Positions 13,666 to 63,727 of a stretch of 64,000 nt of DNA are shown piece after piece. Position 1 is the stretch's first letter. The number at the start of each line of letters is the position of its first letter. The translations under genes were made by a program, and so were the position numbers. Source of the DNA: an uncultured virus (IMG/VR IMGVR_UViG_3300009154_000046) (Duplodnaviria > Heunggongvirae > Uroviricota > Caudoviricetes); the IMG/VR virus record IMGVR_UViG_3300009154_000046, positions 1-64,000 of that record; one strand, 5' to 3'. The notes beneath the pieces were generated by a model, which ran no database searches, was not told where the DNA came from, and was given only the letters and a program-made list of their open reading frames with translations.

Positions 13666-14220
13666 TTATAGTGTTAAATATTTTCTACAGATGTCTGCTT
13701 GTTCCTTTAAAGATTGTTTTCGAGCTGCAACACGAGTAGCAACACGAGTAGCATCAGCAGCAGTAGCAGCAGCATAAGCAGCAGCATAAGCATAAGCAGC
13801 AGCATAAGCATCAGTAGCAGCAGCAGCAGTAGCAGCAGCAGCATAAGCAGCAGCATAAGCATCAGTAGCAGCAGCACGAGCAGCACGAGCAGTAGCATGA
13901 GCAGTAGCATGAGCAGCATGAGCAGCAGCAGCATAAGCATCTAATTCTTCTCTACTTATCTTACCTTCACCAAACTGGATAGCTGCATCTATTGCATTTA
14001 TACTATGTTCATCTCGCATAAGATTCCTAACAGTATTAACACAATGACCCTTGGCAAGAGTTAATTCTCGTAAGTTGTCAGGATAGAGTTTTGCATATGT
14101 CCATAACATCCAATCGGCTCTTTCACATGTTGCAAATGCTTCTTGCAACGTTTTATTCCCTAACCAATTTAGAGCTTCTTCACAAGCGTTAATCGCTTTA
14201 AGTTGTTCTTTAAATGTCAT
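13666..14220 (-). CDS. Ala-rich low-complexity protein
   Basis: ACEEALNW...RADWMLW N-terminus, long poly-Ala tract, QADICR end. Confidence 0.7.
   Translation of the reverse strand: MTFKEQLKAINACEEALNWLGNKTLQEAFATCERADWMLWTYAKLYPDNLRELTLAKGHCVNTVRNLMRDEHSINAIDAAIQFGEGKISREELDAYAAAAHAAHATAHATARAARAAATDAYAAAYAAAATAAAATDAYAAAYAYAAAYAAATAADATRVATRVAARKQSLKEQADICRKYLTL
13722..13940. repeat. imperfect (GCA)n-based tandem repeat encoding the Ala tract
   Basis: gcagcagca/gcataagca units. Confidence 0.9.
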
Positions 14221-31957: not shown

Positions 31958-32338
31958 TACATTATCGTTCTTTGATTATTTTATTTTAATCGTTTAGTAA
32001 TTGTTTTTTGTTTTGTACTTTATCAACTCTGGAGTCCGTATAAGCCATACATTCACGTCTTAAATCTTCCGTATACTTGTCAATATTGTTACGGACATTG
32101 TGTATTTCACTATACATATTTCTCTCAACATCCGATGTCTGTCTATGTATAAGTTCAACTTCACGTCCGACTGTCTGCTCTAAATTTTCTAATTTGTTTG
32201 CTAATCTAATCACCTTTACCATACCTACAACAATTACTACCAACATTGTGATAGCAACCATCGCAAGCATACCAAAAGCAAATGCTAATTGTGTATTCAT
32301 ATTTTGTTTTCTCCTATATATCAAAGAACGATAATGTA
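31958..32338. repeat. perfect 19-bp inverted repeat pair enclosing one ORF
   Basis: tacattatcgttctttgat (31958-31976) / atcaaagaacgataatgta (32320-32338). Confidence 0.9.
31986..32300 (-). CDS. single-TM coiled-coil membrane protein
   Basis: ATG 32300 preceded by AGGAG; hydrophobic N-terminus then heptad-like region. Confidence 0.7.
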   Translation of the reverse strand: MNTQLAFAFGMLAMVAITMLVVIVVGMVKVIRLANKLENLEQTVGREVELIHRQTSDVERNMYSEIHNVRNNIDKYTEDLRRECMAYTDSRVDKVQNKKQLLND

Positions 32339-32341
32339 TAG

Positions 32342-32457
32342 TACAGCAGATAGGATTTGCACCTATATAGTTTAGTTACCTATTTAACTGACCTCCGAAG
32401 AGCCCTACGTCTAACTTACGGATTTATGTCGACATTATCCGTTTCCGCCACTGCTGT
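32342..32457 (-). ncRNA. tRNA-like element A (no anticodon arm)
   Basis: acceptor ACAGCAG/CTGCTGT-A, TGGCGGAA...AGACG D arm with inserted hairpin, T arm ATAGG-TGCAAAT-CCTAT. Confidence 0.7.
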
Positions 32458-32461
32458 ATGT

Positions 32462-32589: not shown

Positions 32590-32672
32590 TAGTCAGGACA
32601 GGATTCGAACCTGCTTGAGGGCTTACGACCTCGGCTATTCTATTTACGACAACACCATACCGCCACCTGACT
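32590..32672 (-). ncRNA. tRNA-like element B (no anticodon stem)
   Basis: acceptor AGTCAGG/CCTGACT-A, T arm GCAGG-TTCGAAT-CCTGT. Confidence 0.7.
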
Positions 32673-33271: not shown

Positions 33272-33291
33272 AGTATGTAATTTTAAGTAAC

Positions 33292-33324
33292 AAAAAACCC
33301 CAAACTCATGTTCGGGGGGTTCTT
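33292..33324 (-). terminator. intrinsic terminator after tRNA-Gly
   Basis: CCCCGAAC-atga-GTTTGGGG followed by TTTTTT. Confidence 0.75.
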
Positions 33325-33333
33325 CATATTATG

Positions 33334-33404
33334 AGCGGGACCAAAGAATCGAACTTCATCCTGCAGCCTGGAGGGCTGCTGTGCTACCATTACACTAATT
33401 CCGC
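33334..33404 (-). tRNA. tRNA-Gly(TCC), atypical
   Basis: 71-nt cloverleaf; GCAGC-CCTCCAG-GCTGC; C at position 33, one acceptor mismatch, weak T stem. Confidence 0.8.
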
Positions 33405-33409
33405 TTATA

Positions 33410-34270
33410 AACCATGAGATTATTGGTTTGGGTGTACCATCTTTGGAAGGGTTATTGTTTTCCTTCGTATCCACTTCCTTTTGAGAAGTATCAGTACAGT
33501 GTCGGTCCGTAATGCGAACCACTCATAAAGTCATAAACTACTCTCTAACTAATCTGCTTCTTCAAGTCTGCCGACCTGATTAACACTTGCGGCGTTAGAA
33601 GTTTTTCATTAGAATCACAGACCACTTGCGGTGGTATCGTGGCAACGAACAACTCGTTACTATGTAGACACCTTTCGTCTATAACTGGCAAACACTTTTG
33701 CTTTATGATTATTTTTTGAATAAAAAAAAGTTGTTGTGGTTTGTAGATTGATTCAGGTAGCGGTCTGCCACTAGCTCTCTCACCTTTTGAGTCAGAGAAT
33801 ACTAAACTACCCGATGCAATATCCCTATTGCCATATTTTGAGTCATCTTCATACAAATATGTTGGTACATAAAATGTAAGGATAGTAACAGCACCACCTG
33901 TACACAGTCTTATCTAGCGTCCTTTCGGATAGATTGATGTTAAGACCACTCTGATATTGAGTAACGAAATGATACGAAGGGATTAAGTTCGTATTTCTCA
34001 CATATACTCTATGAGTTATTCCTATTGCTCTTCCGAGCTCAATTAGAGTATCTACTTACCCTAATCATTCAAACTTTTCTGTTACAGTGTCACCCTCACA
34101 TACAGAGCTCAAACAGTATCTCACTTGTCTACATGCGTTCCAACCTTACAGGGTTGAAACTGCAGAATGCTTAACCAAACATTCCACTTTATCCTACTTT
34201 CGTAGTTTATCTAAAACCGAGCATAGACACCCGTCGTTAATTGTGTAAGACGAACTTACTATATTAACAA
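33410..34270 (-). ncRNA. large structured ncRNA, GOLLD-like
   Basis: ~860 nt without a credible ORF, many GNRA-capped hairpins, own promoter, ends just before a tRNA; size and context match GOLLD; boundaries approximate. Confidence 0.6.
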
Positions 34271-34303
34271 TATCTTTATAATCAAAGAACTTTCTTTGTT
34301 TAA

Positions 34304-34344
34304 TTAAAGATACGATAAATTTTTCATTCTACCAAATCTTTTTT
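34304..34344 (-). promoter_or_regulatory. repeated promoter, copy 1 of 3
   Basis: TTTG-GTAGAATGAAAAATTTATCG-TATCTTTA; followed by boxA-like GTTCTTTGA at 34282-34290. Confidence 0.85.
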
Positions 34345-34357
34345 AATCTTTTTTTTT

Positions 34358-34472
34358 AAACTGATTAATGATAACCGGCTTTATAGTATCGTTTCACTCT
34401 CAAGATACTAATGTTTATAGAGTCACACATTCGGTTTTATTAGATGTTGGCTTCAACCATTCATCAGTTTGT
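34358..34472 (-). ncRNA. candidate small RNA between tandem promoters
   Basis: ends pair (AAACTGAT/ATCAGTTT, AATGGT/ATCATT); no ORF; starts right after a promoter. Confidence 0.45.
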
Positions 34473-34475
34473 TTG

Positions 34476-34516
34476 TTAAAGATACGATAAATTTTTTAAT
34501 CTACCAAATCTTTTTT
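34476..34516 (-). promoter_or_regulatory. repeated promoter, copy 2 of 3
   Basis: 2 mismatches to copy 1. Confidence 0.85.
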
Positions 34517-34731: not shown

Positions 34732-34752
34732 ACTTATTATTTCTTTGATATA

Positions 34753-34850: not shown

Positions 34851-34863
34851 CAAAAAAGTTGAC

Positions 34864-35413
34864 GGTGGAGATGACGGGACTCGAACCCGTGTCTTGATAT
34901 GGAATTGCAACACCAACGTCTCACACGCTTAGCTACTCTGTTCTACACAGAAGCAGGAGGTAAATCTAGGGTGGAATGCTTATCACAGCAGCAAACGTAC
35001 TAAACGTTCCCTTGATTAGTAATGGGACTATATTGGTTAAATACAGTAGATCCACCACTTAGTTGATTCGGGTTCAACCAAGAAAACCTTTAGAGATCGC
35101 CTACCAAAGGTAAATGATTAACTCAACCGCCCCGATTACACACATTCTTGACGGGGATCATTCCAACATTGTGACCACTTTACGGTAGTTGGATATGCAC
35201 TTTTGTAACTATTCTGTTCCAAGGTCAGTTACCAACCTGAAGACTACGCTGCTACAGCAAATGACTCGAAAGCCATGTTGATGATAGATGCACCGATTTC
35301 TTGACGAGATGTTTTTTCTGCGTTTATTGTTTTACAAGTATTTAAGGACATTCATGCTTTGTCCGCGTGTGGTGCTACCCTTCTGCATACCAATCAAATG
35401 CCAGGACATCCCC
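34864..35413 (-). ncRNA. ssrA: tmRNA
   Basis: GGGGATG/CATCTCC-A acceptor with G3-U wobble, GGTTCGAGTCC T arm, ATAAAC-GCA resume context, tag AEKTSRQEIGASIINMAFESFAVAA* at 35321-35244. Confidence 0.92.
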
Positions 35414-47199: not shown

Positions 47200-47634
47200 T
47201 TAAATTAAAACCTTTAAGAGTTTTTTAAACGTTTCATCTATTGAATTTGTTGTATCCAAATCAACAAAGAATGAAATAGGAGGCTCATAGTTTTCAATTA
47301 TTGCCGTTTTATTTTTACTATTATGACAGTAGATTTCTTTAATATCGTATTCTGATTTATATTTTTCACGTAGATTTCTAATTGGTGATGTAGTCGAAAT
47401 TATAACATCACTACCGTTTAAATTTATATATTTACCAATATTGAAACACATTTGGTCAATATCGGCGTATTCAATTAGATTATATGTTTTTTTAATTTGC
47501 TCCTCGTCTATATGGAATACCGTCTTACGCCAATTACGTTTATCGGTTTGCAACCAAAATTGTAAACGTTTCGCCACAGTTGTCTTTCCACTAACTGGTT
47601 GACCAATGAGCCAGTAGATTTGCGAATTTTTCAT
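47200..47634 (-). CDS. APS-kinase-like P-loop protein (divergent)
   Basis: YWLIGQPVSGKTT, SP...R, YEPP. Confidence 0.6.
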   Translation of the reverse strand: MKNSQIYWLIGQPVSGKTTVAKRLQFWLQTDKRNWRKTVFHIDEEQIKKTYNLIEYADIDQMCFNIGKYINLNGSDVIISTTSPIRNLREKYKSEYDIKEIYCHNSKNKTAIIENYEPPISFFVDLDTTNSIDETFKKLLKVLI

Positions 47635-47654
47635 AACCTATCTTATTAAATTAA

Positions 47655-48512
47655 TTATTTTGTTTTTAATGATCGTACTGCTGCTTTATATACTGATGAA
47701 TTTTTATCATATCCCAATGCGGATGTTACTTTTATTTCACGACCCGTATCTGGGTTTTTAACTTTTCTATCTAATGCAGATTTTGGCACCATCGATTTTA
47801 GTTTAGTTACATCATTTTTAGATTTTGCACCTGTTTTATCAACCATAGCCGGCATAGCGGGCATTTCGTGTCTAACTGTTCTTACCTTTAATTTTATATC
47901 CGGATGTTGCTTTTTTAATGCATGTACTGCTGATACGTTTTTATGAGAGTCATCAATAAAGAATACATCATTATACCCTGTTTTTATTTTATCGGAAATC
48001 CAATCTGCTTTCTTTTGGGGATTGCCATCTGCTAATGCTATTACATATATACCATCTAGTCCAATATCTTTTAGGTATTGTTTAACAGGCTTATATGCGC
48101 CTCTTGCTGTAAGTATTACGGTCTTTCTATCTCCTTCTGCTGCATGTATTGTTCTTAATAATTTTGTTACACCTTTGATTTCCTGCGGTTGTTTCACCTT
48201 TTCAAAATCAGAGAAGTCAAACTTATCATCTTTTTTTGCATCGTATATTGCATATTGTCCTGGCGTTAATGTTGATTTCTTACCATCGCCATGCGTAACG
48301 TATATATGTGAGTCGGTGGTCACAAGTGTATCATCAAAATCAAACACACGTAGTTTCTTACCCTTTGGTAATTCATCTTCATTTATAGGCGCAGCAAATG
48401 CATTGAACATTGGGTCAGTATATACTTTGCCAAATTCAACTTGTCTACCATTCCAAACGCCCATTGTTGGTTTAGTTATAAATTCTTTTAATATATCTAC
48501 CAATCCTTTCAT
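47655..48512 (-). CDS. HAD-superfamily hydrolase
   Basis: VFDFDDTL, ILTAR, FIDDS motifs. Confidence 0.8.
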   Translation of the reverse strand: MKGLVDILKEFITKPTMGVWNGRQVEFGKVYTDPMFNAFAAPINEDELPKGKKLRVFDFDDTLVTTDSHIYVTHGDGKKSTLTPGQYAIYDAKKDDKFDFSDFEKVKQPQEIKGVTKLLRTIHAAEGDRKTVILTARGAYKPVKQYLKDIGLDGIYVIALADGNPQKKADWISDKIKTGYNDVFFIDDSHKNVSAVHALKKQHPDIKLKVRTVRHEMPAMPAMVDKTGAKSKNDVTKLKSMVPKSALDRKVKNPDTGREIKVTSALGYDKNSSVYKAAVRSLKTK

Positions 48513-49342
48513 TAGTTAAATTTGGTTTTAGTTAAATCCTTAATTCTTATTTTAATTTTTGGTGTGTAGCCATCAGGTAATTCGGTTCTAACACCAGTAA
48601 ATCCTTCAATTCTATCGCCAAAGTAGTTTAAAGTAAATATACGTTTTGTAAGATTAAGCTGCATTTGTGATGTAGTTTTCATCTTATCAGTATTTCTAGT
48701 CATATTATTTGGGTTGTCGTGTGAGTATTTGTTTTTTCTCAATGCTTCCAACTCCTTTGTCCAATCTTCTAATTGACCAATAGCTGCTCTTGCAGTTGCT
48801 CTACGAATTACTGAGCTTTTGTAATCAGGCCCTTCCGTATATCCGGCTTCAGGGTGAGATAAACCGTGATTTGTCCTTACATATATTTCCGATGGGTCTT
48901 GCTTTTTAATTATTGCCTTATGCTTTGATGTCATTTCAATAGTAATCAAATCATTAGGGTCTGCAAGGAATGTGTGTCCCTTAATGCCACCATCATATAA
49001 TACAACGGATTTAACTGCATCTTTTAATTTTTTCTGCCCTAGTGCGTAACGTATTCTTAGACCATCCTGCGATTTCTTTCCGGTCTTTGCTACTAATTGT
49101 TTTTCTTTCTCATCGAATCCAACCATTAACGCTGAATTGACAATGCCTATGCCATATTCATTCATACCCTCGCTCCAGTCGGTTGTTATATCATGTAGAT
49201 AGACAACTTCAACCTCATTTATAAAGGTATGTACTATCTCTATAAGTGGTTTATAAGCCCTGTCACGATTTTTAGCGAGTACCATATCGTTGCCAAATTT
49301 CTTTGAAACGATTATACATTCTTTTAATAGTTCTTTAGCCAT
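48512..49342 (-). CDS. Ntn-hydrolase-like protein (C45/choloylglycine hydrolase-like)
   Basis: Cys near the N-terminus, LAKNRDR, EGMNEYG, RTNH. Confidence 0.65.
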   Translation of the reverse strand: MAKELLKECIIVSKKFGNDMVLAKNRDRAYKPLIEIVHTFINEVEVVYLHDITTDWSEGMNEYGIGIVNSALMVGFDEKEKQLVAKTGKKSQDGLRIRYALGQKKLKDAVKSVVLYDGGIKGHTFLADPNDLITIEMTSKHKAIIKKQDPSEIYVRTNHGLSHPEAGYTEGPDYKSSVIRRATARAAIGQLEDWTKELEALRKNKYSHDNPNNMTRNTDKMKTTSQMQLNLTKRIFTLNYFGDRIEGFTGVRTELPDGYTPKIKIRIKDLTKTKFN

Positions 49343-49658
49343 TTAATATTTTCTTTGTTGTTTTAAGTCCTTTCTCTAATTTTTCATTTTCATCGGTAAG
49401 GAACTCAACTTTAACACGTAGTTCTGCTACTTGCGCCGTTAATTGTAATATTAAACTACGAAGTTCATCTTTCTCTTTTGCACTTGCTTCAAGTAGGGCT
49501 TCTAATTTAGAAATTCTATCACGACAATCGTGTCTGATGAAATCTTCATCCTTCTCTTTATGTGCGGCTCTTCTTTCATAATATCTCCATGCTGCGCCAC
49601 CACTTAACATTGTTATAGCAGTGATTATTATACTAGTTACATTACTATCTAATGCCAT
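49335..49658 (-). CDS. TM plus coiled-coil protein
   Basis: N-terminal TM, heptad repeat. Confidence 0.65.
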   Translation of the reverse strand: MALDSNVTSIIITAITMLSGGAAWRYYERRAAHKEKDEDFIRHDCRDRISKLEALLEASAKEKDELRSLILQLTAQVAELRVKVEFLTDENEKLEKGLKTTKKILNG

Positions 49659-49660
49659 AA

Positions 49661-50275
49661 TTATTTAGATTTTAATTGTCCTTTATTAGTTGGATCGTTA
49701 TAACCTGTATTTGCTTGGTTAATAAAATTTTGGGATTGCGATATATGGTCTTGTACCCACCCTGGTAAATCTATTTCAGTTGTTCCAATTTTACCTTTAA
49801 GTTCATTAGCGTTTTTAATTATATCATTAAGTAAATTCATAGCCATACTCACTTCATGATCATCACTTTCATATATATTATTTTCGCCTATTTGTGAAAG
49901 ATTGTATTTGTTACCATCCATGTCAAGATATTCATTATCCATAACTTTAAGGTTCAACTCCTTATTGCCATCTTGTGACATTAAATCGGCTTGATTATTA
50001 GTAGAATTTTTTACGCTCCACTTTCCCAAGTCTTTTCCGTTTCTAGTTACGGAAACTTGTACGCCTGGTCTTAGTAATTCGTTTATTTTATTTTTTTTTT
50101 CTTTTATTGCGTATTTTAGTAATTCTGTAAGTTTATTAAATACTTGCTCACCCTTACTTTCTCCAAGTCTATATGCTCCGCCTAACTTTTCATAAACTTT
50201 AATCTTATGGGATACTGGAATATTTTTCTCTTGTAGTTTTTCCCATATTTTAGGATTAGTTAATTCTAATTTCAT
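49661..50275 (-). CDS. hypothetical protein
   Basis: DHEVSMA, LPGWVQDHI motif. Confidence 0.65.
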   Translation of the reverse strand: MKLELTNPKIWEKLQEKNIPVSHKIKVYEKLGGAYRLGESKGEQVFNKLTELLKYAIKEKKNKINELLRPGVQVSVTRNGKDLGKWSVKNSTNNQADLMSQDGNKELNLKVMDNEYLDMDGNKYNLSQIGENNIYESDDHEVSMAMNLLNDIIKNANELKGKIGTTEIDLPGWVQDHISQSQNFINQANTGYNDPTNKGQLKSK

Positions 50276-50309
50276 ATTATATAATTATACCTCTATAAAT
50301 ATAAACATT

Positions 50310-51197
50310 TTATCTATTACTAAAATTATTTAGCTCTAAATTAAAATTTTGTTCTGCTATTCTTCTAAATTCTTCTTTTCTATTCTTTGATACTATAAAA
50401 GATTTAATGGTATTATTTGTTCTAGTTTTGTGCAACTCACCTGCTATAAGGTTTGATAATACTAATTGAGATACAATCTCACCACGTTGTTTCATTATCT
50501 GACAACAATACATAACAAATGTATCTTCAAGTCCATAATGTCCAAATGATTCTGGTACACCGGTTTTATCCAATATGGATTTTGATATTAAAGTAAACCA
50601 GCCACCCGCAAATTTGAATGTAGGAATTTCGTATATTTCAATTTCATCCGAACTCAATAGGGAGTCTTTTTGAATATTGGTTGTTTTATAGTAATCAGTT
50701 GGTGCGAAATGATAATTCTTATTAACAATAACATCCCAAGTATCATCCCATTGTTTTACAAATTCTGGAGTTACTACAACCATATCCAATCCATTGCCTT
50801 TTGCTAATTTGTATGTATCGGTTATATAATGTAGTGTTGTATCTTTGAAAAACATATCAGTATCTAGCCATATAAAGAAATCAGCATCTGGATTGTTTTC
50901 TAAACTATAGCGTCTTTGCGATACGCACCCCAATATATTGTTGGAATCGCATATCAACTCCCATTCACACCAATCCAAATACTTTTCAACCAATTCAATA
51001 GTCCTATCTTTAATATATTCTTTTGGCAACCGTGTCTTATTCCAATCAGTCAATTCATCCGAAAGGCACATCGTTATTTCAACTCTAAAATTAATACTAT
51101 CATCTAAAAATACTGAATTTCTTTTTAATCCGTTTAATGTTAATGCCAAATCTTCCAACTCTTGTGGTAGACAAAATATTGTTATAACTCCTTTCAT
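50310..51197 (-). CDS. GT-A fold glycosyltransferase
   Basis: WLDTD DxD motif, GHYGLEDT. Confidence 0.65.
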   Translation of the reverse strand: MKGVITIFCLPQELEDLALTLNGLKRNSVFLDDSINFRVEITMCLSDELTDWNKTRLPKEYIKDRTIELVEKYLDWCEWELICDSNNILGCVSQRRYSLENNPDADFFIWLDTDMFFKDTTLHYITDTYKLAKGNGLDMVVVTPEFVKQWDDTWDVIVNKNYHFAPTDYYKTTNIQKDSLLSSDEIEIYEIPTFKFAGGWFTLISKSILDKTGVPESFGHYGLEDTFVMYCCQIMKQRGEIVSQLVLSNLIAGELHKTRTNNTIKSFIVSKNRKEEFRRIAEQNFNLELNNFSNR

Positions 51198-51685
51198 ATT
51201 AAATCTTTTACTTTTATCATTTTACCAAAAATACTTAATTGGTTTTGTGCTATTATTGGTAGATTATCAGTCAATGCTAACAATTGCTCTTTATTAATCA
51301 TAAATTTATATTCATCCGATATATAAACTGATTCATTATTTTTAATTTTATTTTTTAAATAATTTAAAAATGTATTTGGATTACTACCCCACATAATGTT
51401 TCCTATTCGTATTATATTATAATTTTGAAAATTATCCTTTATGTAATCTTCCATTTGCTTTTTATGTTGTAAGTATTTACTTATTTCATATTTTTCGTTA
51501 TTATCAATTGCTATTGAACTGAAATAGAATATACATTTTGATTTATCTTGTTTAGATATCAAATCCAATTCTCTTTTAAATTCAGATTCAGTTGTTTCCG
51601 AGCTATTTGAAACTCCTGATGCGAAGAATATTATTCCATCTCTATCATTTAAAATTGATGCTATATCGCCTGTACCTACAATCAT
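51194..51685 (-). CDS. short NAD-dependent epimerase-like protein
   Basis: IVGTGDIA, FASGVSNS, YLQHK. Confidence 0.65.
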   Translation of the reverse strand: MIVGTGDIASILNDRDGIIFFASGVSNSSETTESEFKRELDLISKQDKSKCIFYFSSIAIDNNEKYEISKYLQHKKQMEDYIKDNFQNYNIIRIGNIMWGSNPNTFLNYLKNKIKNNESVYISDEYKFMINKEQLLALTDNLPIIAQNQLSIFGKMIKVKDLI

Positions 51686-51688
51686 AAC

Positions 51689-52540
51689 TTATTTATATTT
51701 AGCCTCTAATACCGATTTCCATTCAGGAACTCTATCGTATTGATGTATTAATGTAAATGGTATACCCGTGCTTGTTTTAACAATGTCGCCATCTAAATAT
51801 GGTTGTGGTTCTACTAAGTTATTCTTATTAATTGATACTACTTTGGCATCTACGGTTGTACCGGCTTGGCATGCCCAAGCTTCTTCGGAGTTTGTAAATC
51901 TTGTAACCGATTTATATACATCAAACGATAATAGAGTATTTAGTGCGGCTTGGTCTGGTGTTTCATTTGAGCTGCCTATACACATAAGATATATATTTAA
52001 AAATAATTCACTCATTATTTTCCATTCTCCACTTACAGTTCCACAATTATAAATTAAATTATCTTGACAACGTTCATATACAAAATCACCAAAGCTTTCA
52101 ATTAAATTATTTTTACCCCACTCTTCGTGTTTATACTTTAAGCTTTCAGATCCAACATTTATTTTTTTATCTCCTATGTTATTCTCAATCCAAATAGATG
52201 GATTTTGCTGAAATATTACATCGCGTGGGTCACAAGCTATTACATACCTCAAATCGCCATATTCTTCATTTAGAGATTGTAATGATTGATAATAATGCAA
52301 TTGCCTATCGCAAATTATTCTAAAATTATCTTTATATGTATACCATTGATTTACCTCATCACGGTTAAACCCAACAACTATCCAACCACGTTTACGCAAT
52401 TCATCAACGGTTGAAAATGGTACATTATAGACAATCATTACTTTATATCCGTCAAAGCCTGATTTTTCTAATGAATTAATAAATATTTCTATTTTATCAA
52501 ATGTATAATTTGTTATACAACCTAATACTACGTCTTTCAT
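51689..52540 (-). CDS. putative glycosyltransferase
   Basis: DPRDVIFQ.NP, DQAALN, HQYDR motifs. Confidence 0.7.
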   Translation of the reverse strand: MKDVVLGCITNYTFDKIEIFINSLEKSGFDGYKVMIVYNVPFSTVDELRKRGWIVVGFNRDEVNQWYTYKDNFRIICDRQLHYYQSLQSLNEEYGDLRYVIACDPRDVIFQQNPSIWIENNIGDKKINVGSESLKYKHEEWGKNNLIESFGDFVYERCQDNLIYNCGTVSGEWKIMSELFLNIYLMCIGSSNETPDQAALNTLLSFDVYKSVTRFTNSEEAWACQAGTTVDAKVVSINKNNLVEPQPYLDGDIVKTSTGIPFTLIHQYDRVPEWKSVLEAKYK

Positions 52541-52544
52541 AAAC

Positions 52545-53330
52545 TTATAATTTAATTATTGAGTGTTCTTTTAATCCACATACCATTTCGTATTCTTGTC
52601 CAAGATAATTTTTTCCGCCTAACCAATTTGGGTCTTCCCATGGCTGTGCTGTATATAAATTTTCAATAAGATCATAACCTCCAATCATCATCACAAATTG
52701 AACTATAAAATCCTGCCATCCAATTATTTTGTTAATACTTTTTAAAGTATCATAATCGTTCCAAAGTGGTTCTCTACATTTTTCCCAAGATTTTACAAAC
52801 TCATCTGGTTTAAAAATGCAACCACCACCAGCTCCATATGTGATTGCGCTGGCTAATCCTCCCAAATTATAAGAATACAACATAAATTCATTTGGTAAAT
52901 AATTAGGGCGATATGTTCCAGTTGCCGATGGTGCGGATGCATGTATTGCCATTGAAAAATCCGTATTTAATATAGATAATTCTTTTAAAAGATAATTATC
53001 TTCTTCTAGAATCATAATATACTTTGTAGTACATTTTTTACAAGCCTCATACAACCCACGTATCCATTCAAAAGTTTCTTCCCTAGTCCAACATGGTTTT
53101 CCAACTATTACATCGCCAAAATCACCACAATATCCTACTTGAAAATTATTAACTGTAAGTTCTGCTTTATATTTTTCTGCTACCTTTTTATAATTTTCAA
53201 CATCCCCATCATAATCTACATTTATAAAAATATCGGAATCTGGGTAATATTTTTTCAATGTTCCAATTGCCTTATCTCCTGCTTCATAATTCGTCCAAGC
53301 CCATATGTATGCGCTAATTATTTTTTCCAT
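52545..53330 (-). CDS. putative GT-A glycosyltransferase
   Basis: ATG 53330 preferred; MILEED, GWQD. Confidence 0.6.
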   Translation of the reverse strand: MEKIISAYIWAWTNYEAGDKAIGTLKKYYPDSDIFINVDYDGDVENYKKVAEKYKAELTVNNFQVGYCGDFGDVIVGKPCWTREETFEWIRGLYEACKKCTTKYIMILEEDNYLLKELSILNTDFSMAIHASAPSATGTYRPNYLPNEFMLYSYNLGGLASAITYGAGGGCIFKPDEFVKSWEKCREPLWNDYDTLKSINKIIGWQDFIVQFVMMIGGYDLIENLYTAQPWEDPNWLGGKNYLGQEYEMVCGLKEHSIIKL

Positions 53331-53340
53331 ATAATTTATT

Positions 53341-54057
53341 TTAAAATTTTTTACCATAATCATCACTACGCAATACTTTATATAAGTCATTTGCATACGG
53401 TGTTCTGCTATCATTTAGCCCTCCAATAAAACGGTCATCTAGCCATTGTACTTGCTCTTTGCCTACTCTATTAACGAGTGGAATATAAAAGTTATGCAAT
53501 CCTACATTAACGCCTCTTGGTGGCACTATTTTCATTTCTATAATGCAGTCAATCATAGTTTGTACCATAGAATGTGGAAATACAATGAATGTATCATTTA
53601 CTATTGGTAAATCGTGATACTCCGGTTCTCTCCATAAAAAATTACATTTTGTAAAATCGTAATTATAAATTTTAAATGGATTTTTTAAAAAGAACATATC
53701 AAACCTAGTAGAAACTACAACATCCAAATCTTCACCAATTAATTGATTTAAACTATTAATATAAGTTAGTGCCTGCATTTTGAATAAATCCGTTGGTAAA
53801 TCTATATTACCCATAAATTTATTATAATTCTCCTCTACAAATGTTGATTTTTTTATGTTTGGATACGCTTTTAAAATATCATTCTTTTTAATACTATCAT
53901 ATGTAAATATGTAAGTTGATAAATCGTGCCCATCTTCTATTAATGGTGTGATTATATTATTTGTAAATCCTTCCAATGAATCCACATAGTTTCTGTATCG
54001 TTCTACTATACTACCATCATTATAAGATACTCCGGTTAAATTAAGTCCTATTTTCAT
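53341..54057 (-). CDS. hypothetical protein, possible glycosyltransferase
   Basis: STRFD motif; cluster context. Confidence 0.5.
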   Translation of the reverse strand: MKIGLNLTGVSYNDGSIVERYRNYVDSLEGFTNNIITPLIEDGHDLSTYIFTYDSIKKNDILKAYPNIKKSTFVEENYNKFMGNIDLPTDLFKMQALTYINSLNQLIGEDLDVVVSTRFDMFFLKNPFKIYNYDFTKCNFLWREPEYHDLPIVNDTFIVFPHSMVQTMIDCIIEMKIVPPRGVNVGLHNFYIPLVNRVGKEQVQWLDDRFIGGLNDSRTPYANDLYKVLRSDDYGKKF

Positions 54058-54059
54058 TT

Positions 54060-55211
54060 TTAATTATTAATAATATTTGCTATTGTTTCAATTTCTAAAT
54101 TTGTTAAGTAATGATGATTTGGTATATAAAACCCATACTTATCAATTAAATTGGCATTATGTAAATCATTTGAATTTCCATTAACGTTATACCAAAATGG
54201 TTTATTCGCAATATTACCAGCTATTAGTGGTCTAACTTCCACATTTTCTAACATTAAGGATTTTATAATTTCATTTCTCTTATACGATACAATAGGATAT
54301 GCAAAATTTGATATAAAATCTTCATTTTTTACTCTTAAATTGAGTTCATTATTTTTAATCAAAGAATTATAATAGTTAAAATTTTTGTTTCTTAATAAAG
54401 AATACGAATCAAGTTTATCAATTGCCCTTAATCCTATAAAGGCTTGTAAATCGGTAGACCTCACATTTAAACCAGGAACGTAAAAGCAATACAATGATTC
54501 AAATTCATCAACATTGTATCGTTTTCTCAAATAATCTTGCTTAAATTTTGGTAAATCTCTATCCCAACCATGACTTCGCATCATTAATAACATATAATAA
54601 AATTCTTCATCATTTGTATTTATAAATCCGCCCTCTATTGTACTCAAATGATGTCCAAAATATGTTGAAAATACAGAAGCAAATCCAAATGCTCCTAAAT
54701 ATTTTTTATTATATTTTGACCCCATTGATTCACACACATCCTCTAATAAGATAACTTCATATTTTTCACATAAATTTATCAGCGAATCCATATCAGGAAC
54801 TAATCCTAATGGACATACTGATATAAAAACCGATGGTTTATGCTTTATAAATAATTCTTCTAAATGATTCAAATCGCATGATAAATCTTCCAAATTGCAA
54901 TCGCACAAATATGTTTTATAATCTAATAGCATTGGTGAACTGACATCAGTCGCCCAACTTAAAGCTGGAGCTATTATTACATTATTCTTTAAAATTTTAA
55001 ATTGCTTTAAAGCAGCAAGCATTAAAAGAATGGCAGAAGAGCCTGAATTTACAAATACGGAATATTTTGTTCCTATTTTTTCTGCCCACTTTTTTTCCAA
55101 TTCAACAGTTAAATTACCTTTTGTTAATCTAGGCATTTCATCGGCCGATAACCATTCAATTAATGCCGATATATCGTTTTTATCAATAGTATCACTAACT
55201 AGTTTTATCAT
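54060..55211 (-). CDS. colD: ColD-like GDP-4-keto-6-deoxy-mannose 3-dehydratase (DegT fold)
   Basis: VNSGSSA, EDVCESMG, STYFGHHLSTIEGG (His replacing the PLP Lys), MRSHGW. Confidence 0.7.
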   Translation of the reverse strand: MIKLVSDTIDKNDISALIEWLSADEMPRLTKGNLTVELEKKWAEKIGTKYSVFVNSGSSAILLMLAALKQFKILKNNVIIAPALSWATDVSSPMLLDYKTYLCDCNLEDLSCDLNHLEELFIKHKPSVFISVCPLGLVPDMDSLINLCEKYEVILLEDVCESMGSKYNKKYLGAFGFASVFSTYFGHHLSTIEGGFINTNDEEFYYMLLMMRSHGWDRDLPKFKQDYLRKRYNVDEFESLYCFYVPGLNVRSTDLQAFIGLRAIDKLDSYSLLRNKNFNYYNSLIKNNELNLRVKNEDFISNFAYPIVSYKRNEIIKSLMLENVEVRPLIAGNIANKPFWYNVNGNSNDLHNANLIDKYGFYIPNHHYLTNLEIETIANIINN

Positions 55212-55215
55212 AACA

Positions 55216-55247
55216 CAAATATATGAATAATTTTTTAAAATTCCAAA
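55216..55247 (-). promoter_or_regulatory. Bacteroidota-type promoter
   Basis: TTTG-N20-TATATTTG. Confidence 0.85.
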
Positions 55248-56146
55248 TTAATATTATTATATGTTTTTTTAATCCCATTAAATAAAGATAATGGATTAAA
55301 ATTTGGAATAACTTTTTTCAATAATTCTATTGATATATCTTTTTGATATTGCCCATCAGGTAAGTTTGTATCAAATTTTATTTCTAAATCATTCATATTG
55401 CAAGCTTCTAAAGCAATGTTAGCTATTTCTCTTATTGAAAGTATTTCATTTGTGGCAACGTTCATATTATCATATATTCCATTTTCCATACAATATTTTA
55501 TAACATATGCCAAATCATCCGCATGCATAAATTGTCTTAAAGGATTCCCTGTACCAAATAATATTATACTGCTCTGATTAGTTTTTTTAGCAATATAAAT
55601 TTTTTTAATGAGAGATGCTACAAAGTGACTGTTATCACCATACTTATCATATTCGCCATATAAATTGCAAGGTATGAGGTATTGATAATTTAAACCATAT
55701 TGCTTATTATATGCATCGGTTTGAACTGCTAAGCATCTTTTAGCATATGCGTATGAAAAATTAGTCGGAGTTGGTGGGCCGGAATGAAGTACACTTTCTG
55801 TCATTGGATACGAATCAACAATATCCGGATAAATACAACTACTTAATATTCCTATAAATCTTTCTATGCCAAATTCATATACAGACTCTAATAATAATGT
55901 ATTCATTAAAATATTTTCATTGAAATATTGAACTGGATATTTTATATTATCGAGTATACCCCCAACCTTTGCTGCTAAATGTATAACCATATCGGGCTCA
56001 TAACGATATAATAGATTATCAATTTCTTTCTTTGAAGTTAAATTACAATCTTTTGATGATAAATAAATTGCATCTGGTAAAATATTTTTTAAAGATTTAC
56101 CAACAAGGCCAGTTCCGCCTGTAACTAATATTTTTTTATATTGCAT
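55235..56146 (-). CDS. fcl: GDP-L-fucose synthase / ColC-like epimerase-reductase
   Basis: GGTGLVG, LAAKVGGI, SSCIYP, YAYAK, PCNLYG, GTGNPLRQF. Confidence 0.88.
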   Translation of the reverse strand: MQYKKILVTGGTGLVGKSLKNILPDAIYLSSKDCNLTSKKEIDNLLYRYEPDMVIHLAAKVGGILDNIKYPVQYFNENILMNTLLLESVYEFGIERFIGILSSCIYPDIVDSYPMTESVLHSGPPTPTNFSYAYAKRCLAVQTDAYNKQYGLNYQYLIPCNLYGEYDKYGDNSHFVASLIKKIYIAKKTNQSSIILFGTGNPLRQFMHADDLAYVIKYCMENGIYDNMNVATNEILSIREIANIALEACNMNDLEIKFDTNLPDGQYQKDISIELLKKVIPNFNPLSLFNGIKKTYNNINLEF

Positions 56147-56148
56147 AA

Positions 56149-57018
56149 TTATTTATTTCTAACGATATATCCATTTTCAAATCTAGTATCTATTACATTC
56201 CAATCGGGTTCATATATACTATCATATGGTGCTCCAGGCGTTTCACCACTCCATGTACCTGGACCCGATGGTCCGAACCATATACTTGGCGCATATGTAG
56301 ATTTATTTTTATTTTTATTTAAGAACTGAGCCCACCAGCTGTATGTTGAGTTTGATATAATATTAGTATTACACATACTCATTAGCCACATTTCTTCATA
56401 ATTCTCTAATCCAGAAACAATCCTCATATTTTTAAAATTCAATGTATTTGCGTATGCCTTATCATTTGAAAATATTAACAAATTATCGTATTCCCCAATA
56501 TTACTTATACATTCCTCAAAGTAAGAAATATCAGTAACAGGCAATATATGTGAAACATTAAAAAAATCACCTCTACGAATGTGCATTGATACTGTTTTTC
56601 GACTTTGAATTTCAGGATATAATATGTTTGCTTTTTCTATAAACTCATTTGTTGGTCCAAATGTATCTTTTATTTTTTCATCATATCCCAAAAAGTTTTT
56701 CCAGCTTTCAAAGTAACCCCTAAATAAAACTGTTTTTTCAAAATTTATATTTTGATTTATAAATTTATTATAATTGAAACTATCTTCTTCAAGTAAAACA
56801 TAATCACCTATATCATCTACAAATTTTAAATTTCTATAAACATTATTTATAAAATGCTGTGGCCACATATCGGGTTGATAACTATAAGATAGGTATAATT
56901 TAGTAGAAAACGCAGGCTCTATACCATATTTCCAACCTTGAGCACAAGCATGCGCTATTTGGAATAGTTGAGCTCCGAGGCCTCCACCTAAATTTGCTGT
57001 TGAGTATATTTCATTCAT
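56149..57018 (-). CDS. GT11 alpha-1,2-fucosyl/colitosyltransferase
   Basis: GGLGAQLFQ, GYFES, HIRRGD, NSTYSWWA. Confidence 0.85.
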   Translation of the reverse strand: MNEIYSTANLGGGLGAQLFQIAHACAQGWKYGIEPAFSTKLYLSYSYQPDMWPQHFINNVYRNLKFVDDIGDYVLLEEDSFNYNKFINQNINFEKTVLFRGYFESWKNFLGYDEKIKDTFGPTNEFIEKANILYPEIQSRKTVSMHIRRGDFFNVSHILPVTDISYFEECISNIGEYDNLLIFSNDKAYANTLNFKNMRIVSGLENYEEMWLMSMCNTNIISNSTYSWWAQFLNKNKNKSTYAPSIWFGPSGPGTWSGETPGAPYDSIYEPDWNVIDTRFENGYIVRNK

Positions 57019-57033
57019 TTTTATATATTTAAT

Positions 57034-57795
57034 TTAATTATTTAAGTAATGATTTATTAAATCGGATAAATTTTTGGCAGTTGGACGTGCGTTTACATTA
57101 AAATCTATAAATTGTTCTCTAGTTCGTTTATGGTCTAAATCATCTCCTGGATTAGAATTTGGATTTAATTTACTTTTAAAAGATAATTTTCTTTTTAAAG
57201 TTATTTCGTTTAATGGGCAATATCCATAATATAAAATAGCAAAATCGGTTGTATATGGTTTGTATATATGTTGATTTTGTGGTGTATTAAAATGCCTACC
57301 AGCGCCACCCAAATATTTTACATAATCTAAATTAAAATTATGCATGGACCTACCAAATCTATAAAATCCGTTTTCAAAAGGGCTTTGTCCCCAATGGCGT
57401 TCTTTAATCAAATCTTCTTTAATTTCAGTAAATTCCGTATCTGGCATATCTACCATAAGATATTGTGGTATTATGAATTGTGTTGGATTAGTTATATAAT
57501 TCAATATATCGTATTTGCCTAATAAAAATTCAGTAGTATTTAAACATATTTTAAATCCATCAATTTCCGATTCTAATTCGCTTACTTCGGAATCTACAGC
57601 AACGGCTTCAAAATAAGAATTTCGACTTGTAACAACCTTCCAATCTGGACATATTTCTTTTATTATTTCAACGCTTCTATCTGTGGAGTTATAATCAATT
57701 AGAATACCATAATCAAAATATTTTTTATGATATTTTAACCAGTGTGGTAACAAATATTCTTCATTATAGAAGTGACTTATAATTGTTTTTTTCAT
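57034..57795 (-). CDS. GT2-like glycosyltransferase
   Basis: FYNEEYLLPHWL, IDYNSTDRS. Confidence 0.7.
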   Translation of the reverse strand: MKKTIISHFYNEEYLLPHWLKYHKKYFDYGILIDYNSTDRSVEIIKEICPDWKVVTSRNSYFEAVAVDSEVSELESEIDGFKICLNTTEFLLGKYDILNYITNPTQFIIPQYLMVDMPDTEFTEIKEDLIKERHWGQSPFENGFYRFGRSMHNFNLDYVKYLGGAGRHFNTPQNQHIYKPYTTDFAILYYGYCPLNEITLKRKLSFKSKLNPNSNPGDDLDHKRTREQFIDFNVNARPTAKNLSDLINHYLNN

Positions 57796-57801
57796 TTTTT
57801 A

Positions 57802-59037
57802 TTAATTAATTTTTTGTATAAAAAATTCTGGAAAATATTGTATGAATAAATCATCGGATATGTTTCTTTTTTGCTTAATCCTTTTACAAATTTCATTGAA
57901 AAAATTCCAAGCAAGTGGAACAAATACAACTTTTGCGGTTTTATCCAATTCTTCTAAATAAGAAGGATTGTATATGGGTATATCCATACCAGGCGTTAAT
58001 AATCCTTGTTTTAATGGATTATCATCTATTATACAATCAAGTTCAATTTTTGTAAAATTTAGTAAAGTATTTCCTTTCGCTGCAGCGCCATACCCTATTA
58101 ATGTATATCCATCATTTTTAAACTCTAATAATCTTTGCTTTAATGAGAAAGCTGCTTTATAGCATTTCATTGAATATTCAGGATATGTAAGAATGTTATA
58201 AAGACCATTTGCTTTTTCATTTTCATATTGAATATGTAAATTATCAGATATTTCGTTTTTATGAGAAATAATGAATACATAGCTAGTTCCATGTATATCT
58301 GTCTTTTTTACATCAACCAGATTCAATCCGGCTCGTTTAACTAAAGTCATCATTGAATTGATATTAAAAAAAGATAAGTGTTCGTGATATATTGTATCAA
58401 ATTCATTATTTATTACCATATTTGCTTGAGAAGTTTGTATAAACAACTTCCCATCGGTAGCTAATATTTCTGAACATGCTTTTAGAAAATCATATGTAAA
58501 CCTAGTATGAGCAAAAACATTTTGTGCTGTAATAATATCAAATTTAGTATCTTCAAGCTTTTTTACTGTTACGGTATTAAAGTAATCGCAAATTATATTG
58601 TGGCCTTTTTCTACGGAGTCATTATATAAATTTTCAGCAGGGTCTATTCCATAAGTTTCCAATCCCAATCTCTTATATGAATCTAATTGAGTTCCATCAT
58701 TGCAAGCAATATCTAAAACTTTTTTTGCATTTGGAACTTGCTCAAGTGTTATTTTTGCAAAGAAATCAAAATAATCTTTCAAAGTTTTTGTTGTACCACT
58801 TACATAAAGATAATTTTTAAACATTAAATCAGGATTTACCGCATGGCTTAATTGTAAATGATAGCAATTGGTACATAGATTTAATTTTAAAGGATATTCA
58901 TCCAATAAATCGCCTTTATGATAATCATTTGCCAATGGCTGTTTGCCTAAATCAATAATCGTTTTTAGATTAGTTGAACTACCACATGCTAAGCACTCAT
59001 CATTGGCTATACATTTTTTTGAAAATTCGTTAAACAT
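57802..59037 (-). CDS. NDP-hexose C-methyltransferase
   Basis: CLAC, LGKQPLAN, DIACNDG, IYHEH, YGAAAKG. Confidence 0.85.
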   Translation of the reverse strand: MFNEFSKKCIANDECLACGSSTNLKTIIDLGKQPLANDYHKGDLLDEYPLKLNLCTNCYHLQLSHAVNPDLMFKNYLYVSGTTKTLKDYFDFFAKITLEQVPNAKKVLDIACNDGTQLDSYKRLGLETYGIDPAENLYNDSVEKGHNIICDYFNTVTVKKLEDTKFDIITAQNVFAHTRFTYDFLKACSEILATDGKLFIQTSQANMVINNEFDTIYHEHLSFFNINSMMTLVKRAGLNLVDVKKTDIHGTSYVFIISHKNEISDNLHIQYENEKANGLYNILTYPEYSMKCYKAAFSLKQRLLEFKNDGYTLIGYGAAAKGNTLLNFTKIELDCIIDDNPLKQGLLTPGMDIPIYNPSYLEELDKTAKVVFVPLAWNFFNEICKRIKQKRNISDDLFIQYFPEFFIQKIN

Positions 59038-59953
59038 AATGTTTTATATTGTTTCTATTTGTAAATTTTGATTTATTATTTGTTTCTATTAATTCTAAAA
59101 CTATACTTTCCGGTGTTTCTTGAAATTTATAGTTAAATGTTTCTGAAAACTTTTCGGAATTTATAGAAAAATTATAGTATTTAGGTTTAATATCTCCCGT
59201 TGCACTTGGGTCGGAATTATAATCCAATACCTTTACTCCTGTAATCTTGCCAACCATATATGCAAGTTTTTCAGCGGTACTATTAAATGATGCCAAATTA
59301 TAAATTCCCCTGCAATCTTCAGTCGTTTCTATTATTTTTTGAATTGCTCTTGATAAATCACTTATACCAAGAATAGGCCTTATTATATCTTTAATGTATA
59401 ATTGTATTTCTCCTTTATTTAAGGCACTGTAAGTCATTGAATTTAACATAACATCGTTTCTTATGTGAGATGCTGCGCCATTAACTGTACCAAATCGTAA
59501 TCCGTAATATTCAATATCATATAGATTTGCATATAAATCTATAATATATTTTGTGGTATCGTAGTGGTTGTGTTGTACAAAGTTTGTAAAACTTTCATTT
59601 ACGCATTTATCCGCAACATTTCCATAAACAGAAGAACTACTTGCATATATAAACTTTTGTTTCTTTGAAAGCTTAGGTAAAAGATTAACGAAGTTTCTTA
59701 CATTGTTATTAAAGCTATATTGCGGATTACCTTCGCACATCTTTACGCTAGAATGAGCTGCTAATAAAATTACAACATCAAACTTATGTATTGTTGATTC
59801 TTGCAATTCATTGTAATCAATAGTATGACACCCATCTGGCACATCGCTGAACCAGCATAAATCCACATTTGTTATATCATACCGATTACGATAATCTTCT
59901 ATTAGTCGGGTTCCAATATAGCCACTCCCACCAATTATTAAAAGTTTTTTCAT
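59030..59953 (-). CDS. NAD-dependent epimerase/dehydratase
   Basis: GGSGYIG, YASSSSVYG, YDTTK, LRFGTV. Confidence 0.85.
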   Translation of the reverse strand: MKKLLIIGGSGYIGTRLIEDYRNRYDITNVDLCWFSDVPDGCHTIDYNELQESTIHKFDVVILLAAHSSVKMCEGNPQYSFNNNVRNFVNLLPKLSKKQKFIYASSSSVYGNVADKCVNESFTNFVQHNHYDTTKYIIDLYANLYDIEYYGLRFGTVNGAASHIRNDVMLNSMTYSALNKGEIQLYIKDIIRPILGISDLSRAIQKIIETTEDCRGIYNLASFNSTAEKLAYMVGKITGVKVLDYNSDPSATGDIKPKYYNFSINSEKFSETFNYKFQETPESIVLELIETNNKSKFTNRNNIKHYV

Positions 59954-60532
59954 TTATTTATTATTTTTAGGAGTATATGAAACATTACATATACCACCAT
60001 ATCCTTTGATTCTATCCAATTTTTCCCAATCGCTTTTCAACAATCCAATGTGAATACTATCAAGCCATTCTCCACATTTGTATATTGATTTTCTTCTAAC
60101 TCCCTCTTTTGTAAAGCCAACATACTCCGCTGATTTCATACTAGCTATGTTATTCTCTAATACTTGCCCGTCAATTCTATTCATATTTAAAACTTCAAAC
60201 GCAAAATCAGTACCGGCGCATAAAACTGGTTTTGAAAAGCCCTTACCTCTATGTGATTTGAATACATCGTGCGATGAATCATATGTCCTGTTATACCAAT
60301 CAATGTTTTGAATCTTATACAACCCAACTCGTTCATCCGATGAAGCTTCAATACCAATTAAAATTAAATGAGTTTTGCTATTTAAAGATTCAAACCAACG
60401 TTGCTGGTCTAAATCATTTAGAAAATTAATATTATGAGTACCAAACCACGATTCATTTTTAAGTTCCTTTAATAGTGGTAAGTCTTCTCTTTCAAGCTTT
60501 CGTAATGCGATTCCCTCTTTGTGTATATACAT
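59954..60532 (-). CDS. GNAT N-acyltransferase (RimJ/PseH-like)
   Basis: HRGKG, VLENN.AS, GFTKEG. Confidence 0.8.
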   Translation of the reverse strand: MYIHKEGIALRKLEREDLPLLKELKNESWFGTHNINFLNDLDQQRWFESLNSKTHLILIGIEASSDERVGLYKIQNIDWYNRTYDSSHDVFKSHRGKGFSKPVLCAGTDFAFEVLNMNRIDGQVLENNIASMKSAEYVGFTKEGVRRKSIYKCGEWLDSIHIGLLKSDWEKLDRIKGYGGICNVSYTPKNNK

Positions 60533-60533
60533 T

Positions 60534-61178
60534 TTAAAGTCCTCCGTCTATTCTTAAATTAGTTCCACAAATATATTCGTTTTCAATTATAAAATTGATA
60601 GTATTATATAATTCTTCCATAGATCCCCAGCGTTTTAGTCCAATTTTATCCTTTGCCATTTCTTGATATTTTTTTTCAACTCTATAACACATGCCACCAT
60701 CCCAATATCCTAGCTGAATTGTATTACAAGTTATACCATACTTAATATTTTCTTTATTTGCGGTTGCTATCAATCTATCTACAAATGCCTTTGAAGCGCA
60801 ATAGATTGAATTTTTTGGTACATTTAGTTCTGAAAAAACCGAAGATATTGCAATTACTCTACCGTATTTTTTTTCAATCATTTTGGGAAGACATCCTGCC
60901 AATATGTTAATATTACCTTTCATATTAACATCCATCATAGAATCAATTTCATTGATATCGGCCGCATCTATCTTACTCAAGAATACATCATATTTTTTCC
61001 CACTCATATTTAATACAATATCAATATCATTGGAATTAAAAAACTTTTTAGTTTGCTCCAGTGATGTAATATCAACTTCTCTACTACTGATTGGGATTAT
61101 TTGATATTTTTTTTCTAATAGAGGAATTAGCTTTTGTCCTAAACCACCACTAGCTCCAAATATAACCATTTTTTTCAT
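60534..61178 (-). CDS. SDR oxidoreductase (FabG-like)
   Basis: GASGGLG, YCASK, IDGG. Confidence 0.8.
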   Translation of the reverse strand: MKKMVIFGASGGLGQKLIPLLEKKYQIIPISSREVDITSLEQTKKFFNSNDIDIVLNMSGKKYDVFLSKIDAADINEIDSMMDVNMKGNINILAGCLPKMIEKKYGRVIAISSVFSELNVPKNSIYCASKAFVDRLIATANKENIKYGITCNTIQLGYWDGGMCYRVEKKYQEMAKDKIGLKRWGSMEELYNTINFIIENEYICGTNLRIDGGL

Positions 61179-61184
61179 ATTATA

Positions 61185-62120: not shown

Positions 62121-62134
62121 TATGTTTATTTTAA

Positions 62135-62166
62135 CAAATATATGTAAAATATATCAAATTACCAAA
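62135..62166 (-). promoter_or_regulatory. Bacteroidota-type promoter
   Basis: TTTG-N20-TATATTTG. Confidence 0.85.
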
Positions 62167-62172
62167 TTATTT

Positions 62173-63363: not shown

Positions 63364-63367
63364 ATTT

Positions 63368-63727
63368 TTATATTTTTATATTTTTAATTCCAGTATTTCT
63401 TTCTATATTAAACGCATACGCTGATTCGGCTCCATCCGGCTTTTTATCATTAATCAATATCCGATTACCTCCACCAATGCCCATAATTAAACTATCATAA
63501 AAAATACCTAATTCAGATAATTGTTTTTCTGTGGAGTTTCTCATAGATTCCCTTCTTCCTGTAATCAATATAATGTTATATCCCGATGCATCCCACTCAA
63601 TAAATTTTTCTATGGTTCCAGGCAATAACTTTAATTTTTTAGAATATGGTGTATTATTTGTAGGGTTTTCATGCTCAACCAATGTACCATCAATATCGCA
63701 AATTATGGTTTTAGGTCTATTATTCAT
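63368..63727 (-). CDS. small HAD phosphatase
   Basis: DIDGTL, TGR, INDK. Confidence 0.8.
   Translation of the reverse strand: MNNRPKTIICDIDGTLVEHENPTNNTPYSKKLKLLPGTIEKFIEWDASGYNIILITGRRESMRNSTEKQLSELGIFYDSLIMGIGGGNRILINDKKPDGAESAYAFNIERNTGIKNIKI

Follow-up and report, generated by a model that had tools for sequence, protein, structure and literature searches.

Gene content and features of the locus

The window, by which we mean the whole 64,000-nucleotide stretch analyzed here, comes from a 75-kb virus record carrying genes for GroEL, an endolysin, DNA and RNA ligases, a tmRNA, and tRNAs. On its minus strand, a promoter is followed by a boxA-like site, a leader hairpin, an RNA of about 825 nt that we assign to the GOLLD family, a non-canonical tRNA-Gly, and a terminator-like hairpin (Table 1). 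The RNA gene lies near tRNA genes, as tRNA-Gly, tRNA-Glu, and the tmRNA are all found in its vicinity. We consider the source to be a large phage likely infecting Bacteroidota, the host phylum being suggested by its repeated TAnnTTTG-type promoter together with the boxA motifs. A homologous locus (L019) identical to the window over 1,100 nt was found on a 192-kb contig.

Table 1. Positions of the features described in the text (window numbering unless stated otherwise)
Feature	Position	Strand	Basis or remark
Promoter of the Bacteroidota primary-sigma type	34305..34336	-	TTTG 34336-34333, 20-nt spacer, TATCTTTA 34312-34305
boxA-like site (rRNA-leader motif of Bacteroidia)	34282..34290	-	homologue leaders and Bacteroidia 16S leaders
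Leader hairpin before P1	34234..34270	-	fold; 23-sequence alignment (A1); retained within the window's clade
GOLLD 5' domain, env-38 type (P1-P13 region; cage cap)	33815..34235	-	env-38 colinearity, covariation
GOLLD conserved 3' domain	33411..33814	-	RF02032 match
Variable A/U-rich linker without embedded tRNA	33709..33738	-	equivalent of env-38 497-538; GC count
Non-canonical tRNA-Gly(UCC)	33333..33404	-	43.9 bits; 6 nt behind the GOLLD end
Intrinsic-terminator-like hairpin and T run	33290..33317	-	stem 33317-33298
tmRNA	34863..35413	-	about 551 nt vs 374-position model
Promoter-led non-coding segment, 110 nt	34360..34470	-	paired ends; fold z only -1.7
tRNA-like gene	32590..32672	-	25.5 bits, below Rfam cut-off
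tRNA-like gene	32342..32458	-	27.0 bits, below Rfam cut-off
Gene for 104-aa membrane-anchored protein	31986..32300	-	134 homologues, no known family
Perfect 19-bp inverted repeat around the 104-aa gene	31958..32338		second boxA-like site in 5' arm
184-aa ORF	13666..14220	-	low-complexity alanine-rich repeat
Long ORF run	47600..64000, continuing at 64000..72000 of the genome	-	sugar-nucleotide/glycosyltransferase-like by N-terminal sequence only

The tmRNA carries large insertions and was missed by ARAGORN, and both tRNA-like genes have intact acceptor and T arms with enlarged D arms, the one at 32342-32458 bearing a long hairpin in its D loop. The short promoter-led segment is located just upstream of the GOLLD promoter.

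Identity, domain layout, and covariation of the RNA

Judging from its sequence, the RNA encoded at 33411-34235 is a full-length GOLLD RNA of a freshwater phage. The Rfam GOLLD model (RF02032; gathering cut-off, 150 bits) matched the 3' part from end to end (model positions 1-416 of 416) with 299.8 bits and an E value of 8.7e-85. This model spans the conserved 3' region only, and the 5' half, being outside its span, had no Rfam match. We therefore turned to env-38, a GOLLD RNA of 833 nt whose structure was solved by cryo-electron microscopy as a 14-mer nanocage of D7 symmetry (Kretsch et al. 2025, PMC12286853; PDB 9MEE according to PMC12990946). Its sequence and bridge table were taken from the supplement of PMC12286853 and numbered by hand, the residues cited in its tables serving as checks; the comparison with the window was made by eye and is hence given without a percent identity. 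The two RNAs are colinear from about 34235 to 33411, including the 5' half. The assignment to GOLLD rests on the Rfam score, this colinearity, and covariation in both halves (see below), and the first-pass annotation, which had proposed a GOLLD-like noncoding RNA, is thereby borne out; of the Rfam models that it had named, GOLLD matched and ROOL did not. That annotation had also considered that the RNA might represent a new large-RNA class or be a remnant of a group I or II intron. The 5' half without an Rfam match could be taken in favor of either, but the Rfam model is limited to the 3' 416 positions and the 5' half aligns with env-38, while the group I intron, group II intron, and ROOL models gave no match at gathering score across the 64-kb window and none at E ≤ 1 within 31900-35700. 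We count this reading as already refuted, with a negligible probability left to it. A weak match to 5.8S rRNA (17 bits against a cut-off of 42) was dismissed as chance.

The five hairpins listed in the first-pass annotation are all present on the minus strand (34205-34194, 34038-34027, 33929-33920, 33635-33621, and 33597-33581), and its claim of raised GC content holds as well, since 33410-34270 has 38.4% GC versus 31.8% for the whole window, where 4.1% of 861-nt windows are equally GC rich. The A/U-rich linker that it described exists (22% GC over 33700-33745) but does not divide two domains. In env-38, the boundary falls at residue 420/421, the 5' domain comprising residues 1-420, and the linker at 497-538 is disordered and located inside the cage (PMC12286853); by this correspondence, the boundary lies here at about 33815 and the linker at about 33709-33738, within the 3' region. 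No tRNA was detected inside the linker by ARAGORN or Rfam. The annotated 5' limit, 34270, likewise needs adjusting, as it corresponds to the foot of the leader hairpin, and homology to env-38 begins at about 34235. The only ORF of any size in the RNA (33545-33856; TTG start, 103 aa) was rejected as a gene: its frame is free of stops in two of seven homologues checked (L031 and L020) and broken in the other five, including one that is 94% identical (L008), and RNA-library contigs of relatives carry 1-nt indels within it. The earlier statement that the stretch contains no credible ORF thus stands.

Homologues were collected with pattern scans. A first pattern found no match among viral sequences, and a looser one returned 31 loci, of which 21 were not GOLLD. 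INPHARED yielded only two distant records, both GOLLD by Rfam. In total, the pattern scans and the two INPHARED records gave 181 loci, 92 of them with a full-length copy; these, together with the window, were collapsed at 97% identity to 76 sequences (mean identity, 69%) and, after removal of L035, to 75. The homologues are 772 to 850 nt long, near or above 800 nt as is the window RNA. L035, at about 988 nt, is roughly 150 nt longer than the others, and no tRNA was detected inside it. In the alignment of 75 homologues, 52 column pairs scored above a tree-aware null, defined as the largest G-APC score (32.2) in a set of 10 alignments that were simulated along the tree under site independence. 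Of these, 51 are base-pairing with a separation of more than 3, and the window forms pairs at all 51, so that the lack of covariation, which would have spoken against the first-pass annotation, is not what was found. In the 5' domain, all 21 significant covarying pairs are base-pairing. The single-sequence fold of the 5' part taken by itself beats shuffled controls by a moderate margin only (z = -2.7), and the case for its structure therefore rests on covariation. A candidate pairing between L4 and the linker (34176-34173 with 33738-33741) is paired in 92 to 96% of homologues, with a best G of 21.8, below the null.

Inter-chain bridges and the predicted cage

To compare the window with the env-38 cage, the inter-chain bridges B1-B10 (Supplementary Table 2 of PMC12286853) were mapped by hand and counted in the 75-sequence alignment. 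At the level of sequence, all ten bridges keep compatible residues, two of them through compensatory change. The A547:U617 pair of B7 is replaced by C33700:G33629 in the window, and across the family this pair is C-G in 50, G-C in 21, and A-U in 4 of 75 sequences, with a G of 35.0, above the null. The B6 receptor pair U669:A682 has become A33577:U33564. Apart from these two pairs, U150 of B2, which is G in the window, and the bulged G, G694, which is U, the bridge residues match those of env-38. The B9 dinucleotide is GC in 68 and CG in 7 of 75, and the adenosines or guanosines of B3, B5, B6, and B10 are kept in 70 to 75 of 75. In the B4 kiss, conservation of the outer pairs is poor (58% and 36% pairing across the family), and the invariance of A34/A35 in B1 is circular, since most loci were retrieved with the L3 motif.

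The window RNA therefore resembles env-38 in length, stem order, 5'/3' layout, tRNA-free linker, bridge residues, and its context in a phage tRNA island. It differs in its stem sequences and in the exchanges just described, and its leader and trailing tRNA-Gly lie outside the solved construct. The GOLLD RNA of Streptococcus agalactiae, at 700 nt, forms a 12-mer, and its 3' domain a 10-mer (PMC12990946). It shares the conserved 3' domain with the window but lacks P9, P11a-c, and P21b, whereas the window retains the GAAA hairpin of P11a (33929-33920) and the L21b loop (33571-33569). From these comparisons, the window RNA likely builds a hollow cage like that of env-38, and we are confident that it would at least be multimeric. 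A 14-mer with D7 symmetry is, on the whole, the favored stoichiometry, because the window RNA retains every bridge of env-38, even those that the 12-mer of S. agalactiae lacks.

Promoter and boxA-like leader

The promoter proposed in the first-pass annotation was found (TTTG, a 20-nt spacer, and TATCTTTA) and belongs to a family repeated in this genome. In Flavobacterium, promoters carry the TAnnTTTG box at -12 to -5 (PMC9723704), from which the transcription start is predicted at about 34300. The boxA-like site, likewise announced in that annotation, lies shortly behind. Two of the 75 homologues do not have 150 nt of leader; of the other 73, 71 carry a boxA-like pattern no more than 150 nt from P1, where shuffling predicts 0.5. 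On the opposite strand it was found in none of 73, and in downstream control windows in 8 of 146. The spacing between the pattern and P1 varies from 4 to 108 nt. Because the homologues are related, neither these counts nor those of the trailers below represent independent events. The genome has 14 minus-strand matches to the promoter, and only the one of GOLLD is followed by a boxA-like site.

The same pattern was looked for in rRNA operons of the likely host lineage. In a class-wide sample of Bacteroidia 16S leaders, the strict form was present in 23 of 28 and the loose form in 26 of 28. In Flavobacteriaceae leaders, the strict form was found in 2 of 10, both times upstream of the main promoter; these leaders carry a one-letter variant, and a looser pattern was found in 12 of 16 leaders and in all four 16S-23S spacers that could be parsed, out of 20 loci. 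In rrn leaders, boxA loads NusB-S10 (PMC13753749). The window motif, 15 nt behind its promoter, thus resembles an rrn boxA, but it precedes a phage noncoding RNA, has neither a boxB hairpin nor a leader-trailer helix, and its binding of NusB is putative. Another GOLLD clade has a hairpin at a boxB-like place in the leader. The stretch 34232-34300, which includes the window's own leader hairpin, folds with a z of -2.3. A leader-trailer helix around GOLLD was rejected, as z fell below -2 in only 4 of 72 loci (median, 0.2; window, 0.1). No paper joining boxA and GOLLD was found in a literature search that covered mainly open-access papers and does not prove novelty, and the main text of PMC12286853 mentions neither boxA nor "Bacteroid".

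The trailing tRNA-Gly and 3' ends across the family

Both the tRNA-Gly and the terminator reported in the first-pass annotation were recovered, and similar hairpins follow the tRNA in L020, L165, L031, and L008. The tRNA-Gly has a C at position 33, an A5-C68 mismatch, and a weak T stem (U-G/G-U/A-U/A-U/G-C) yet retains G1-C72, C2-G71, G3-C70, U73, and the UCC anticodon. By the EF-Tu T-stem rules and the identity elements of tRNAs, it may be read as charged by GlyRS but poorly bound by EF-Tu or ribosomes. Among the 75 homologues, the trailer is this odd tRNA-Gly in 17, another tRNA in 16, a mini-elbow in 8, a terminator in 29, and none of these in 5, so that a tRNA or tRNA-like element or a terminator ends 70 of 75; a tRNA or tRNA elbow lies within about 22 nt in 41 of 75, with at least five different identities. 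The mini-elbow, a mimic of about 45 nt consisting of acceptor and T arms, replaces the tRNA-Gly in L072, L053, L099, L162, L168, L171, L174, and L181.

Within the odd tRNA-Gly family, 16 of the 17 trailers next to GOLLD retain UCC in a parse that set no condition on the anticodon, while the base at position 33 varies among C, U, and G, the loop has 7 or 8 nt, the T stem contains one to three G-U pairs, and the T loop drifts. In one trailer (L177), the D loop is interrupted by an inserted hairpin, and two loci (L160 and L090) have a second tRNA-Gly(UCC) further on. A separate scan for this family gave 32 matches, of which 18 lie immediately behind GOLLD and 14 in other places, so that its role is not limited to tagging for processing. 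By analogy, its features fit a tag for processing that also has some use outside translation. The non-proteogenic tRNA-Gly(UCC) of staphylococci also keeps UCC with altered T and D arms, consistent with weak use by EF-Tu and the ribosome (PMC7826273), but the window tRNA is of an unrelated lineage, is phage-borne, and has no identified glycyl transferase partner, so that the likeness is one of analogy only. A literature search for phage non-proteogenic tRNAs returned nothing relevant.

A neighboring gene with rRNA-like packaging

The gene for the 104-aa membrane-anchored protein downstream of the tRNA-like genes deserves separate mention. A leader-trailer helix of 15 to 20 bp encloses it in 16 of 16 loci (the window and L248-L262; z = -4.3 to -8.6), and in the 15 relatives, which have 33 to 62% identity, the helix arms change together. 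An AGGAG ribosome site is present in 13 of the 16 loci, a site that just 3 of 100 minus-strand ORFs in the genome have, and 9 of the 16 loci begin 35 to 61 nt behind a tRNA called by ARAGORN. This gene appears to encode an mRNA packed like 16S rRNA, a more unusual arrangement than GOLLD itself.

Occurrence in RNA libraries and bacterial genomes

Of 24 sequencing runs listed for the stretch, 21 are recorded as RNA, and none contains half of the sampled words. Contigs from lake or freshwater RNA libraries mapped to GOLLD in all eight runs compared, these runs having been chosen for containing this stretch; the comparison was confined to RNA libraries, and the data are assembled contigs, which are silent on strand, transcript ends, and level. 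Pieces 99 to 100% identical to the window occurred in X1-X3 and X12 (33798-34246 in X3, 33995-34237 in X2, and 34101-34268 in X1), and a contig identical to the window extends to 34268. The flanking protein genes were mostly uncovered (bins with depth, 6-8 of 30), which is not evidence because the runs were selected for the GOLLD stretch. None of the contigs bridges GOLLD and the tRNA, which says nothing on processing. A scan of GTDB genomes gave 11 matches, only two of which are GOLLD by Rfam; a match in a cultured Flavobacterium is not among them. Of the two, one lies on a 7-kb contig in a metagenome-assembled genome (MAG) of Flavobacterium and the other on a 16-kb contig in a MAG of Melioribacteraceae; being short contigs in bins, they are weak host evidence.

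Discussion

Taken as a whole, we consider the following reading quite probable: the GOLLD gene is predicted to be transcribed like an rRNA operon, and its RNA is likely trimmed by RNase P, is predicted to form a cage, and likely serves phage protein synthesis; the individual steps are graded separately. Host RNA polymerase would start at about 34300, boxA would load NusB-S10, and an rrn-type antitermination complex would prevent Rho from ending the 1-kb transcript, which is not translated, before the terminator is reached, a series of steps that we consider probable. A cut by RNase P at 33404 would then release the GOLLD 3' end, for which we see a little better than an even chance; relatives would obtain the same end from another tRNA, a mini acceptor/T arm, or a terminator. 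RNase P forms the 3' end of the eukaryotic long noncoding RNA MALAT1 at the tRNA-like mascRNA. Here, too, the tRNA-like element that immediately follows a long noncoding RNA would set the 3' end of that RNA, although the eukaryotic system has no homology with the window. Titles and abstract openings of papers found for GOLLD together with RNase P, mainly open-access ones, showed no 3' processing. Once released, the RNA would self-assemble into the env-38-type cage, with the confidence expressed above for the cage and for its D7 symmetry. The weakest step, which we put forward only tentatively, is that the cage may act as an abundant, stable container or scaffold binding ribosomes or tRNAs in lytic growth and may work with the neighboring tRNAs and tmRNA to sustain translation; such a role was hypothesized by the authors of PMC12286853, whose Discussion contains a cargo hypothesis and a ribosome pull-down.

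Other explanations deserve weighing. The tRNA-Gly, working or decaying, might be placed there by accident, with the GOLLD 3' end set by the terminator and exonucleases. The constancy of UCC behind GOLLD, the 14 matches away from it, and the 29 homologues in which a terminator alone suffices all agree with this, but a tRNA or elbow of changing identity, in eight cases a bare mimic, close behind 41 of 75 homologues does not. Position 33, the loop size, and the T loop also drift in ways that are rarely tolerated in a translating tRNA; incidental placement is the less likely reading. The cage itself might instead be a defensive decoy that captures the RNA-binding proteins or nucleases with which the host fights phages, the odd tRNAs being part of a decoy island. 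GOLLD does lie among degenerate tRNA-like genes, and the cages are high-copy and stable (PMC12286853), the rest of this case being what we infer; such a role, which we find unlikely, would require neither an empty interior nor the conservation of ten bridges between chains. Less likely by far is a virion assembly or packaging scaffold comparable to the pRNA of phi29. A ring-like symmetric, phage-borne multimer whose expression rises at lysis (PMC12286853) would suit it, but the D7 cage is closed rather than an open ring, and the gene sits in a tRNA/tmRNA island with no recognizable head genes among the 18 neighbors scanned.

The reading of an rRNA-like transcript trimmed into a cage subunit also has a bolder form, in which GOLLD would be a counterfeit rRNA that takes up NusB-S10 at boxA and from which RNase P frees the cage subunit by removing a tRNA-shaped tag. 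The tag would represent an undescribed family of glycine tRNAs that are chargeable but kept out of translation, either feeding a non-ribosomal phage reaction with activated glycine or acting as decoys. We regard this form as rather improbable.

As GOLLD is already catalogued and its structure solved, the window copy by itself adds little. Its value lies in the material that it brings to the function and biogenesis of GOLLD, namely, 75 full-length homologues and a natural compensatory swap at B7. The rRNA-type leader and the processing site are both testable, and the likely host phylum has cultured, tractable members.
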